A stretch of 64,000 bases of DNA. Source: Octopus vulgaris (taxonomy: Eukaryota). The stretch's first letter is position 1. Every line of letters starts with the position of its first letter. The position numbers were made by a program, and so were the translations under genes. The notes under the pieces are model-generated. The model made no database searches. It was not told the origin of the DNA and saw only the letters and a program-made list of their open reading frames with translations. Where the stretch lies: assembly GCA_951406725.2 (NCBI GenBank), contig OX597814.1, positions 154,690,001 to 154,754,000 of the forward strand, read 5' to 3'. Below are positions 1,203 to 63,205 of the stretch, piece by piece.

Positions 1203-1400
1203 ATGACCTCGTGTGTACCGTTGGCGATTTTTTTCCCTGTGTCTTCCCTTCTCTGGATCTTTCCTTCTCCTATGTTTCCAACGAAGAGCTCGCTCGAAAC
1301 GTTAACCCTCCTTCTTTCCTGAGCGATCAATAATACTATATTTGCTCCACGTCCTCGCGTTGTTGTGTCTTTTTGTGCTTTCTTGTTTGGATTAACTTTA
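1203..1400 (+). mobile_element. Short (TA)n-flanked HHR-bearing element, family F1, core degenerate (CCAACGA)
   Basis: Homologous to 39556-39762 and 30530-30745. Reads GTTT-CCAACGA-A-GAGC-TC-GCTC-GAAA-CG-TT-AAC at 1274-1306. Confidence 0.75.
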
Positions 1401-2044
1401 TATATATATATATATATATATATATATATATAAAAATGTACAAGACACACACATGCTTATTCAAGCGTATACACACATACACACATACATACATACATAC
1501 ACACATACATACACACATACATACATACAGACATACACACATACATACATACATACATACATACATACATACATACATACATACATACATACATACATAC
1601 ATACATACTTACATACATACATACATACATACATACATACTTACATACATACTTACATACATACATGCATTCATTCATTCATTCATTCATGCACACACAC
1701 ACACAAAAATATACTACGAATATATATCTATATAAACATATATAGACATACACGTATATAAACAAACATGTATGTGTTATTTTATTATTGCATATTACCC
1801 CCCCCCCCCCACAAAAACAAACAAACGAAAAACAAGAAATGAGTAAAAGATATAATTTAAGTTAAAAAAAAGTACTTAATGTATTAGTAAATACGCAGTT
1901 AATGTACATGTGCAAAAATAAACGAAGAAAATAAGGAACAACGACTCCTTGAAAACGAATTACATTCCTTTGTCTACAGATTTTGACAGTCTGCGTGTAT
2001 GTGCGTGTATGTGTGTGTGTGTGCATGTGTGTGTGTATGTGTAT

Positions 2045-2757
2045 ACTCTTTTACTCTTTTACTCTTTTACTTGTTTCAGTCATTTGACTGCGGCCATGCT
2101 GGAGCACCGCCTTTAGTCGAGCAAATCGACACCGGGACTTACTCTTTGTAAGCCCAGTACTTATTCTATCGGTCTCTTTTGCCGAACCGCTAAGTGACGT
2201 GGGACGTAAACACACCAGCATCGGTTGTCAAGCAATGCTAGGGGGACAAACACAGACACACACACATACACACACACACTTATATATAAAGGCGGCGAGC
2301 TGGCAGAAACGTTAGCACGCCGGGCGAAATGCTTAGCGGTATTTCGTCTGTCGTTACGTTGTGAGTTCAAATTCCGCCGAGGTCGACTTTGCCTTTCATC
2401 CTTTCTGGGTCGATAAATTAAGTACCAGTTACGCACTGGGGTCGATGTAATCGACTTAATCCCTTTGTCTGTCCCTGTTTGTCCCCTCTATATTTAGCCC
2501 CTTGTGGGTAGTAAAGAAATATATATATATATATATATATATATATATATATATATATATATATATATATATATATATATATATATATACATATGTACGA
2601 CAGGCTTCTTTCAGTTTAAGTCTACCAAATCCACTCACGAGGCATTGGTCGGCCCGAGGCTATAGTATAAGACACTTGCCCAAGATGCCACGCAGTGGGA
2701 CTGAACCCGGAAGCATGTGGTTGGTTAGCAAGCTACTTACCACACAGCCACTCCTGC
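2045..2757 (-). mobile_element. tRNA-derived SINE family A, interrupted by a family B SINE
   Basis: Minus-strand head has A box TGGCTGTGTGG and B box GGTTCAGTCC, then an internal microsatellite and an (AGTAAAAG)n tail. Many copies in the window. Confidence 0.9.
2290..2520 (+). mobile_element. tRNA-derived SINE family B nested in the central microsatellite of SINE A
   Basis: GGCGGCGAGCTGGCAGAA...GAGTTCAAATTCC (B box)...GCCTTTCATCCTTTC...GGTCGATAAATTAAGTACC. Multicopy. Confidence 0.9.
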
Positions 2758-3035
2758 ATATGTTTTTGTCTCTTATCATTCACTAATTGGACTGTAAACA
2801 TGCAGGAGAACCGTCTCGTAGGGTTTAATCGAACACATGTAGCCTCCCAATAAAATTCTTACTTAAAAGTCTTCTAGTATCAGTATCTTTTGTCGAACTG
2901 TTATGTCATAGTGAGGTGAGCAAACCAACACTAATAGTCAAGTAGTGGGTGGAGGAGCAAACACAAGCACATTGACACACACACACGCACACAGATATAC
3001 ACACATGCATACACACATGTGATGTATATATATGT

Positions 3036-3577
3036 TCTTTTATTCATTTACTTGTTTCAGTCATTTGACTGCGGCGATGCTGGAGCACACATTTAGTTGA
3101 CGAAATTGACCCCAGGCCTAGTACTTATTCTATCGGTTTGTTTTGCTGAAACACTAAGTTTCCAGGATGTAAATGCATCAACATCGGTTGTCAAGCGATG
3201 GTGGGGGAGGGGGGGACAAACACAGACACACAAACATACATACATACATATATATATATATATATATATATATATATATATATATATATATACGACGGGC
3301 TTCTTTGAGTTTGTATCTTCCGAATCAACTCACAAGGCTTTGGTCGGCCCGAGGCTACAGAAGAAAATCCTTCACTCAAGGTGCCACTCAGTGGGGATGA
3401 ACCCGGAACCATGTGGTTTGGAAGCAAGCATCTATATATAAGATGGGATTCCTCACTGTTTTCTTCTTCAAATTCAATCACAAACGGTTGGTCAACCCGG
3501 AGCCATAGTAGAAGACACTTGCCCAAGGTGCTATGCAGTGGGTCTGAACCCGGAACCACGTGGTTGGGAAGCAAGCA
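3036..3577 (-). mobile_element. SINE family A with partial duplication of the head
   Basis: Similar to 9430-9845. A second head segment lies at ~3440-3577. Confidence 0.85.
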
Positions 3578-3686
3578 TATATATATATATATATATATAT
3601 ATATATATATATATATATATATATATATATATTTAAAATGAATAAAAGAATGGAGTCGAACGAGGATTTTAACACAATTCCTTTAA

Positions 3687-3765
3687 TTTCAACACATGTT
3701 TCGAAGACTGCATATTCTTAATTCTGAAGGAATAAGGTGCATTATGCCGTCTTCTCATCAGGAAA
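3687..3765 (-). ncRNA. Hammerhead ribozyme motif (type I, extended stem II)
   Basis: Minus strand: TTTC-CTGATGA-GAAGAC...GTCTTC-GAAA-CATGTG-TT-GAAA. Stem I 4 bp, stem II 6 bp perfect plus extension. Lies in a (TA)n-flanked element at ~3632-3935. Confidence 0.75.
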
Positions 3766-60683: not shown

Positions 60684-61229
60684 GTCCGTTGCAGGGTTAT
60701 TCATTTACAACTGAGTGGATTAGAAACAACGTGAAGAGAAGTGTATTTTTGAAGAACTCAGGGCACTGCCCAATCCACGAATCGAAACCACAGTGACACA
60801 CTGACAACTAGCCCATGTGTATGTATGTATGTATGTATGTATTATGTATGTATGTATGTATGTATGTATGTATGTATGTATGTATGCATGCATGTATGCA
60901 TGTATGTATGTATGTATATATGTATGTATGTATTTATGTAAGTATGTTTGTATGTATGTATGTATGTATGCATGCATGTATGTATGATGTATGTATGTAT
61001 GTATATATGTATTTCTGTATATATCATTATTCCATTATTGGAACTGTAAAAATCTGTAAAACATTCCAGAAGTTTATCATTTAAATAAATATCCGCATGT
61101 CTAGATATGTAACTCTGTGTATGACAAAACATACGTAAAACATACACATCTGCACATACATACATACATACATACATACATAATACATAATACATACATA
61201 CATACATGCATACATACATAAATACATAC

Positions 61230-61705
61230 TGTATTCCATTTCATTATGAGTGGCTATAGCTTATACCATATTGTGGGACTTTAGTTCTTTGTCCTCTGGA
61301 TTATCCTTCCGACGTATTTCATTATAATGTCCTAGCTATACCGTCACATCTCATCGGTAGATGATATCGTGATGACATTTTCGGACAACTGCTTATGATG
61401 TGGGTGATATCCTCAGTGTGAACTCCTCAAAGTCTGCATCGGTTGCTACACTGTACGGCTTCGCCTGCATCTCTATCCCTTTTGTGCATCAGGTACTTGG
61501 TTGACATTTCCTGTTCCTGGATTGCAAACGCATACTCTTCAAAGTGGGAGGTCATGCATACGTCCATGATAAACTGCTTTGATGATCGACGTTACTATCA
61601 TCACGGAGCTTTCTATTAACATATCCATACATAGTCATCTGCTCATATAGGATGATCCTTTCATCTGATGATATGTTGTGGTAGACTTGTGCGACTTCTT
61701 TGGTC
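61230..61705 (-). pseudogene. Fragment of another R4/Dong-type LINE ORF
   Basis: Minus strand: SHFEEYAFAIQEQEMSTKYLMHKR...CRL*GVHTEDITHIISSCPKMSSRYHLPMRCD (CCHC knuckle region). Confidence 0.8.
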
Positions 61706-61789
61706 ATGTATGTATGTATGTATGTATGTATGTATGTATGTATGTATGTATGTATGTATGCATGCATGCATGTATGCATGCATTCATAC

Positions 61790-62468
61790 AAACGGAATGC
61801 GTTCAAAAAGTATCCAACTTTAATTGTCTCCGACATAACTGACGCTGCGTGGGCAAAATCCTTTGGATGGGTGATGATACCACCCTTCTTGCGCATGCGC
61901 GAAACTTTCGCGCCGTTAGGCTGTACCCTGTTGTTACACCGAAAGTACACCAGCACCCTGGTGTACACCTAGAGTACAGGCGTGTAGTGCGCACTCGTCG
62001 GATTTGAGAGACTTCTGCTGCTCCGCCCATCACCTTGGGGGCAAATTTCGCCGACATTTTTCGCATGCTCAAATCCTCTGTTAAAATGTGCATTATTCTC
62101 ACTTCGTGAGCAATTTCCTAGATTGTTACACGACAGTCTTCCATGACCATTCTCGACTGACTCCTCGTTTGGCTTGTGGATGGCCTTTCTGAGCGTGCCT
62201 AACTCACCACTGGAGTGTGGCCATGTTTGAAGCGGTTCTTCCACTCTTGATCTGATTTTTGCTCATGGCATCATCGCCAAAGACCTGCTGAATCCTCTGA
62301 AAGGTTTCAGTTTGAGTATCACCAAGGCTTTTGACAAAAGCTGATGCCATATCTCTGCTCATTGCGTTCGGTGAAAGCGAAACTCCAACGAGAATCTATA
62401 GGATTTTACCCACGCGGCATTAGTTTTGGCGCGAAAAATATAAAGTCGGATACTTTTCGAATGCATCT
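61790..62468 (-). mobile_element. Internally deleted mariner transposon
   Basis: TIRs ATGCGTTCAAAAAGTATCCAACTTT / AAAGTCGGATACTTTTCGAATGCAT. HILTEDLSMRKMSAKFAPK. Confidence 0.85.
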
Positions 62469-63099
62469 ATTTTAACTAATTATTATAAGTTCAATTGCAA
62501 ACGTGCAAAAAAAATCAGCACTATGATTTTAACTGTTATATTAGTTATGCAATTACGACACGCCCTGCTAGCTCACAATGCACAATTGCAATGCACCAAA
62601 TCATACAACACAGAAAACAGTACAAAGACATTAGTGCACAATATATCCACAGTATATCTAGACCACACAGGGAAGTGCTAAAATAAATACACACACAACA
62701 TACATTATGCAACAGCAAAAACAAACATCTGACTGATGACATGAATTTATAAGTAATGTCTACATCAATCTCACATATACGTATACATAAGAAAACGTGT
62801 ATGCTGCGTATATTCTCACATACATGTGCATCTGCATGTCCATTTTATTGTATTCATTTAAATAGTAATGTTCGCTTTCTTTTTTTAATTCAATTTTGAC
62901 TGGCCACCTACTTGGTAGCAACGTCATGAAGAAAAGCATCTTATTCTATCCTATTTATGTTATAAATCATAAGATCCTGGAGATTTTTATAGTCTCACAT
63001 GTCGTAATCATTTTTAGATATGAATTTGTATTCTCTCCCCAAGAACCCAAATTCAGCCATACTTTGCTTCAGACGGGTTGGTACGCATTGTATGTATGG

Positions 63100-63205
63100 G
63101 GAGAATTCACAAAATCAAAAGACGAAGACAGGTGGTGTAGATAACAAATAGATGTCTTAGTATAACGCTCGGGAAGTAAAAAAGTCTTTAACGTTTCGAG
63201 ACTAC
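63100..63205 (-). mobile_element. Family F2 fragment (3' half of HHR only)
   Basis: Matches 21440-21550: GACGAAGACAGGTGGTGTA...TAACGTTTCGAG. Confidence 0.7.

Follow-up and report, generated by a model that had tools for sequence, protein, structure and literature searches.

Short repeats with minimal hammerhead motifs in Octopus vulgaris, including a high-copy family with a G3-C8 core

Does a self-cleaving ribozyme matter to the repeats that carry it? The hammerheads of Penelope-like elements (PLEs) cleave poorly in vitro, and the one reconstituted system did not need them for insertion. The question is raised again by a 64,000-nt stretch of the Octopus vulgaris genome (the window; contig OX597814.1, positions 154,690,001 to 154,754,000), which has a GC content of 36% and is rich in microsatellites (149 tandem-repeat rows) and in dispersed repeats. 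An earlier note, made from the sequence alone, had described about a dozen hammerhead-like motifs there, in at least seven mutually unrelated short elements without open reading frames (ORFs), and had proposed that the tertiary pair between core positions 3 and 8 covaries among them. The present analysis centres on one of these elements, family D, a high-copy repeat in whose hammerhead the usual C3-G8 pair is replaced by G3-C8.

How good a hammerhead is the D motif? Its core reads GUGAACA, with G3 at 13604 and C8 at 13599 (window coordinates throughout), and is followed by an extra G. Stem I has 7 bp and stem II 5 bp, and the GAAA, the palindrome AUAU, U16.1 and U17 (13568) are all in place. 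The predicted fold has the minimal hammerhead layout, both for the motif alone (z -2.6) and within the 200-nt element. No motif of this grade arose in 500 local shuffles in which positions 3 and 8 were left free. The bare pattern GTGANCA..GAAA is not above chance (6 matches against 3.98 expected), so it is by its stems only that the D motif stands out.

Is the G3-C8 swap a property of the family, or of one decayed copy? The stretch 13430-13625 was found in 20 of the 24 sequencing runs listed, 19 of them with at least half of its words. The D-bearing runs come from 12 studies and carry four organism labels, with one marine metatranscriptome at 0.36, and some are as small as 25-57 million letters. 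They are contig sets, only one of which is recorded as RNA. Four runs, one per organism label and with RNA runs left out, were aligned to 13425-13700 at a minimum identity of 80%. The core (13598-13604) and GAAA-AUAU-UU (13568-13577) are free of variants among the 40 listed of 49. A tally by kind, which includes the nine unlisted variants, places every C>G change of all four runs at 13660, and hence reversion of G3 to C lies below 3% in each. C8>G is excluded in three of the four, one G>C variant in the run X3 being unplaced, and C8>U could be among the unlisted G>A variants. A change in stem I at 13565 (10-19%) retains a U.G pair, and there are subfamily-type sites at 40-80% at 13503, 13529, 13535, 13555 and 13586. 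G3 is the family letter in every run aligned. Since the repeat occurs under four organism labels and G3 nowhere reverts to C at 3%, the swap is a trait of the whole D family and not the decay of a single copy. We discounted the silence of the CpG at G12, where no decay is seen at 3% in three of the four runs and the partner decays, since three other CpG cytosines are also silent. The label high copy rests on summed contig depth, which is no copy number: core-bin depth divided by single-contig depth is 14,000-66,000, and a further division by 31, to allow for contig overlap, brings it to 500-2,100; the run richest in D may be the source sample itself.

The contigs also outline the element. Pieces of D stop at 13611-13617, joints there run on into TA repeats, and several joints switch strand; these ends and joints fit a short defined element that would start just before stem I and undergo PLE-like inversions. 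One joint, from 13614 to 13491 across ATAT, has a depth of 1,588 in X3 against about 50 for single contigs (about 30-fold), and may mark either a partial tandem or a further 3' end of D that lies 73 nt inward of the main one.

How might such a core arise? By a simple model with equal rates, used post hoc, two random core changes hit positions 3 and 8 and re-pair them in roughly 0.3-0.6% of cases. Because the changes in D are compensating transversions at one tertiary pair, with the rest of the core canonical and with so low an expectation, we infer selection on fold or cleavage in the D source lineage; the intact pair suggests that a working fold was kept there. A fuller claim is that D is a natural G3-C8 hammerhead present at thousands to tens of thousands of copies in related animals, that its lineage crossed two inactive intermediates, and that cleavage was selected during PLE amplification. 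We advance this tentatively, as a proposal with slightly less than an even chance of being right.

How does D compare with the other motifs of the window? We parsed by coordinate the 14 motifs that the earlier note had named. All are present and their sequences and cores are as described, though several of the positions given mark the 3' end of minus-strand motifs. Only four are well formed, that is, with exact core letters, a Watson-Crick 3-8 pair, a stem I of at least 4 bp and a stem II of at least 2 bp (cores at 30662, 39628, 13604 and 13157); seven are decayed copies or arms, and three are weak. U4-G5-A6, A9, GAAA and U-H occur together, exactly, in 9 of the 14. In seven of the nine, positions 3 and 8 make a Watson-Crick pair: C3-G8 at 30662, 39628, 17222 and 19296, G3-C8 at 13604, and U3-A8 at 13157 and 19896. 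The other two (39108 and 6725) have U.G. Each type of pair sits in a different family, and the covariation is thus seen across families and not within one. In the seven motifs, a small sample, N3 and N17 could in no case form a Watson-Crick pair: U17 accompanies G3, C17 accompanies U3, and with C3 the letter at 17 is U, C or A. This is what a 3-17 trap model would lead one to expect. The palindromic stem III that the earlier note ascribed to the better-preserved motifs is found, as an even palindrome, in 12 of the 14. Families A, B and D have an extra nucleotide after A9, and stem II opens with G10.1-C11.1 in A, B, D, E, F, G and H, not in J or C2.

Are so many motifs expected by chance? A strict exact-core descriptor with a gap of at most 30 nt and positions 3 and 8 left free finds four loci, all with Watson-Crick 3-8 pairs, against a mean of 0.375 loci (0.1 with Watson-Crick pairs) and a maximum of 2 in 40 local dinucleotide shuffles. 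A descriptor that requires at least 3 bp in both stems finds three, against 0.6. Looser descriptors are not clearly above chance (8 against 3.55; 9 against 6.25), and the shuffle test that the earlier note had suggested thus favours the motifs at strict settings only. Further matches of the relaxed scan at 43232, 42683, 31176, 25000, 58092 and 11097 were taken as chance, as were those at 20360 and 27890. With the Rfam covariance models, no hammerhead family appears among the best 150 of 166 matches at E of at most 1; the matches listed are to microRNAs and are driven by microsatellites.

Several of the motifs that the earlier note had taken as unrelated belong together, and eight lineages remain, two of them weak (6695 and 19859). 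The motifs at 1274, 30632 and 39624 (family A), those at 21531, 31651 and 63205 (family B) and the dimer with the motif at 39108 form one lineage, and those at 13054 and 13150 are two arms of one inverted duplication, here counted once. D, E, H and J each proved to be single when the window was searched against itself at low stringency. The elements had been said mostly to abut (TA)n; about half do, 7 of 15 named positions lying within 200 nt of a downstream (TA) run of at least eight units, compared with 10.7% of random positions.

Table 1. Features of the window, in window coordinates
Feature	Position	Strand	Remarks
Family D element	13418..13617	-	high-copy repeat of about 200 nt without a long ORF; ends 3' on (TA)37
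G3-C8 minimal hammerhead	13561..13611	-	parsed and folded within family D
Family A copy, intact C3-G8 hammerhead	39558..39762	+	core 39628, CG palindrome, (TA)n 108 nt past cut site
Family A copy, intact C3-G8 hammerhead	30529..30732	-	core 30662
Family A copy, decayed core	1197..1398	+	two mismatches, core at 1278
Family B copy, related to A	21440..21600	-	core CUGUAGA at 21563, U at position 6
Family B copy	31617..31776	+	core CUGUUGA at 31655, U at position 6, G12 lost
Family B copy	63099..63205	-	5'-truncated inside stem II
Head-to-tail dimer C1, C2, A/B-related	38578..39200	+	both hammerheads broken; 39108 has U3.G8, no stems
Element F	12973..13343	both	97% inverted duplication, a U3-A8 motif per arm (cores 13157+, 13086-)
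Element G	16739..17431	-	C3-G8 core 17222, stem I of 2 bp and a long stem II, CAGCUG palindrome
Element E	3633..3768	-	C3-G8 core 3761, 6-bp stem II, CAUG palindrome, 60 nt to (TA)n
Element I	19288..19520	+	C3-G8 core 19296, 5-bp stem II, near-palindrome CAAAUUG, U-A cut site
Palindrome	18404..19164	both	380 nt, 99%, centred on (TAA)n, contains 3' part of element I
Motif J	19859..19900	-	weak or decayed; U3-A8 core at 19896, stem I of 4 bp, stem II absent, CCGG palindrome
Motif H	6695..6730	-	weak; U3.G8 core (6725), stem II of 5 bp, neither stem I nor palindrome
LINE 3' end with zf-RVT domain	7204-8677 and 54180-54485		beside (TAA)n, copies 96% alike over 307 nt
Tc1/mariner transposase relics	24333-25205, 43661-43927, 61797-62466		HTH and DDE domains
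MITE-like element	60171-60670		500 nt, 59-nt terminal inverted repeats (92%)
LINE, long interspersed nuclear element; HTH, helix-turn-helix; MITE, miniature inverted-repeat transposable element.

The three family A copies share a 5' start (Table 1). Both full copies of family B have U6 (CUGUNGA). No tandem units with complete hammerheads occur in the window, and the dimer at 38578-39200 is its only retrozyme-like tandem. Element F combines a CCGG palindrome with a 2-bp stem II and, after one bulged U, a 6-bp stem I; each arm carries one different defect, the plus arm extends about 70 nt beyond its partner, to (TA)37, and no hammerhead fold is predicted for it. The U3-A8/CCGG pattern common to F and J, with two matches against 0.00 expected, was chosen after the data had been seen. 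Element G has an inverted 119-nt copy (97%), with (TA)n at both ends and a main copy about 165 nt longer on the 3' side. In element E the cut site is disturbed, by G17 or by a 2-nt insertion, and in element I stem I is decayed. The left arm of the 18404 palindrome, which interrupts a short interspersed nuclear element, starts at the predicted element I cut with 1 nt of microhomology. Copying of a cleaved read-through RNA, duplication at the DNA level or an error of assembly could each have produced the palindrome; the start of its arm is a hint of cleavage, from a single case recognized after the fact.

What, then, are these elements? The earlier note had assigned the motifs to the minimal hammerheads of PLEs, and their anatomy agrees with the consensus of Cervera and De la Pena (2014; PMC4209133), who described such hammerheads in PLE terminal repeats, with many families per genome. 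There as here the motifs are of type I, with a short stem I, an extra nucleotide after A9, G10.1-C11.1 and a palindromic stem III (15.2-16.2); they occur mostly singly or as opposite-strand pairs. In that study the members of a pair lay 100-700 bp apart, and most motifs were away from ORFs. The extra nucleotide is G in D, whereas the published consensus has H, and no PLE ORF is linked to the motifs of the window.

The layout of the insertions also recalls PLEs. PLE insertions show a (TA)n bias in some clades, an inverted, 5'-truncated partner and a one-sided tail (Craig 2021; PMC8557442). The AT-rich or (TA)n target is seen at 7 of the 15 positions, as given above. F and G show this arrangement, an inverted copy in which one arm extends further at its 3' end, though their tails of about 70 and 165 nt exceed the published 30-40 nt, and strand-switch joints occur in the D contigs. 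In the anole element Poseidon PAc, Frangieh et al. (2024; PMC11167929) found nicking of AT-rich DNA and protein-assisted hammerhead cleavage. Priming there was internal, at 111-118 nt of the ORF, and the hammerhead cuts at +26; from these positions we derive priming 85-92 nt past the cut. In the window the cut site lies at similar distances from (TA) (individually 95, 106, 108, 96, 95, 150, 60 and 161 nt): A and B fall in the range 95-108 nt, E has 60, D has 150 and the plus arm of F 161. In G the distance is 380 nt. An AT-rich target, internal priming shortly past the hammerhead and two alternative 3' ends (the tail) are points of likeness with PAc.

We therefore consider it probable that the elements are short insertions of the pseudo-long terminal repeats (pLTRs) of several PLE lineages, each with a PLE-type minimal type I hammerhead. 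A PLE protein would nick AT-rich DNA, here mostly (TA)n, and reverse transcription would start from an internal site about 60-160 nt past the hammerhead (380 nt in G). The outcome would be ORF-less copies of about 200 nt, some of which would have an inverted partner or a tail at one end. The template would be mostly uncleaved RNA, because nearly all copies retain the whole motif, and the copies would decay neutrally once inserted. Cleavage would require the hammerheads to dimerize through the palindromic stem III, probably with the assistance of protein. The source of family D would have carried the compensated G3-C8 core and been amplified to high copy.

Several points weigh against this account, or against the part of it that concerns selection in D. 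A Pfam search of 258 frames of the window (256 of the 471 frames of at least 55 aa that passed a complexity filter, and two added) found no remnant of a PLE reverse transcriptase or GIY-YIG domain, only a LINE zinc finger and Tc1/mariner relics. The motifs that are well formed are few, four of 14. The earlier note had expected the core to be conserved above its flanks within families. In D there is no significant excess: the lack of variants at the 17 core and stem III positions has P of 0.47-0.57. The stem II CpGs decay by 3-7%, the same as flank CpGs, and so inserted D copies age neutrally. Contigs less than 80% alike were left out of the D alignment, so that relatives with C3-G8 could be missed, and its depth, very high across the whole element, drops towards the end that bears G3. 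Predicted D dimers (RNAcofold) form through stems I and II or by wrong pairings, with stem III open, and are uninformative. The U6 core of family B is probably impaired, and it seems to have been inherited and spread. In published work, hammerhead cleavage was dispensable for PLE insertion in vitro (PMC11167929), and eight of nine Xenopus retrozyme dimers did not cleave, one being active (Li et al. 2026; bioRxiv 10.64898/2026.07.22.740005).

Could the elements instead be independent non-autonomous families, monomeric retrozymes whose RNA is excised by the ribozyme, and perhaps circularised, with PLE proteins acting in trans? Animal retrozymes derive from pLTRs according to Li et al., and the non-LTR retrozymes (PMC7229834; bioRxiv 10.64898/2026.07.22.740005) are, like the present elements, ORF-less, 200-350 nt long, pLTR-related and dispersed as monomers with type I hammerheads. 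The fixed 5' ends of all three family A copies, the D contig pieces that end at 13611-13617 and the arm of the 18404 palindrome that begins at a predicted cut site would all be natural for excised RNA. The five subfamily-type sites of D point to several source copies, and the joint between 13614 and 13491 may be a partial tandem of D. Retrozymes are however characterized by tandem hammerhead units and circular RNAs, whereas here we have dispersed monomers or inverted pairs at (TA)n, and the only tandem dimer of the window has both motifs broken. Moreover most copies hold a whole hammerhead, part of which a linear cleaved template would lack, and autonomous PLEs would by themselves leave short pLTR copies, with no need of a separate family. 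We regard a retrozyme origin as rather unlikely.

A second possibility is that the hammerheads, that of G3-C8 included, are dead or irrelevant passengers, the pair having arisen by chance or as part of a protein-binding fold, and the spread being driven otherwise. In the anole system mutation of the hammerhead left insertion in vitro unaffected, and the cut site yielded no RNA ends (PMC11167929). PLE clades without hammerheads proliferate well (PMC8557442), and minimal hammerheads cleave weakly even as dimers (PMC4209133). The spread of family B with U6 and the conservation of the D core, which is not above that of its flank, are in keeping with such passengers. One would not expect of them, however, that both core changes of D would be transversions which compensate each other at the only known tertiary pair and leave every other core letter canonical, that seven of nine exact-core motifs would keep a Watson-Crick 3-8 pair, or that N17 would avoid pairing with N3 in all seven, in line with the C3-G17 trap model. 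This possibility, too, we think doubtful. It is very improbable that AT-rich repeats have produced the non-canonical motifs by chance, or that these are C3-G8 copies in decay, and for D this is already refuted as far as sequence goes. In favour of such an origin, the bare G3-C8 pattern is at chance level, H, C2 and J lack stems, F has its short stem II and no hammerhead fold, and the U3-A8/CCGG pattern was picked with the data in view. Against it, the D-grade motif is absent from all 500 shuffles, G3 is the family letter in all four runs, and the U3-A8 core UUGAAAA is a published PLE variant (PMC4209133).

What is new in the pLTR reading of these elements? The radiation of minimal hammerheads and the U3-A8 pair have been known since 2014, with about 1,300 U3-A8 hits in S. 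mansoni and the core UUGAAAA in family 4 (PMC4209133). Perreault et al. (2011; PMC3088659) had reported, as seen again here, natural 3-8 covariation (U3-A8), a 2-bp stem II and variants at position 6; their section on core variation names U3-A8 alone, and G3-C8 goes unmentioned in the parts of the text accessible. It is likewise absent from the 56 representatives of Fig. S3 of PMC4209133 as given in its text, and the accessible parts of PMC7229834, PMC6155905, PMC11014351, PMC7151607 and PMC8967140 hold nothing on it. In PMC3884650 and PMC8495972 G3-C8 appears, in the parts accessible, as a laboratory variant only. The closest precedent is the double change C3G/G8C, which partly rescues a PLE hammerhead in vitro (PMC11167929); there it is an engineered rescue in the autonomous PAc, whereas the ORF-less, high-copy repeat of the window carries the pair naturally. 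In the literature searched, outside which lay most subscription papers and some supplements, we found no report of a natural G3-C8 hammerhead, and none of octopus hammerheads. As far as these searches reach, a high-copy natural G3-C8 family is new. The D and A patterns had no match in metagenome contigs, nor the D pattern in viral contigs.

Some further repeats may be mentioned. One at 16200-16330, and at 5025-5090 on the minus strand, has hammerhead-like halves in reversed order (CAGCC-GAAA, then CUGAAGA, 5 nt and GGCU) and is a ribozyme candidate; it lies within a TA-flanked foldback at 16077-16687. Another short TA-flanked foldback, at 26744-27117, was absent from the list of the earlier note and has a CUGAUGA at about 27001 with weak pairing. 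The LINE 3' ends of Table 1 we take to be R2/Dong-like; a homologue search with the fragment at 7858-8298 retrieved relatives from coral, starfish, shrimp and fish at about 55-63%, and two closer matches. The short interspersed nuclear elements of the window may be of an octopus-like kind.

What would family D mean for PLEs? The earlier note had foreseen that a canonical search would pass over part of this diversity; the published descriptor, '^cuganga', would miss both U3-A8 and G3-C8, and D exposes a concrete gap in it. If our interpretation of D is true, censuses by CUGANGA or UUGANAA miss whole high-copy families of minimal hammerheads. An abundant family with a compensated core allows a direct test of the role of PLE hammerheads, and the thousands of D copies allow a subfamily tree that bears on whether the source elements ever lost the pair. 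The same interpretation, if true, would provide in vivo evidence that hammerhead activity matters to PLEs, against its dispensability in vitro.

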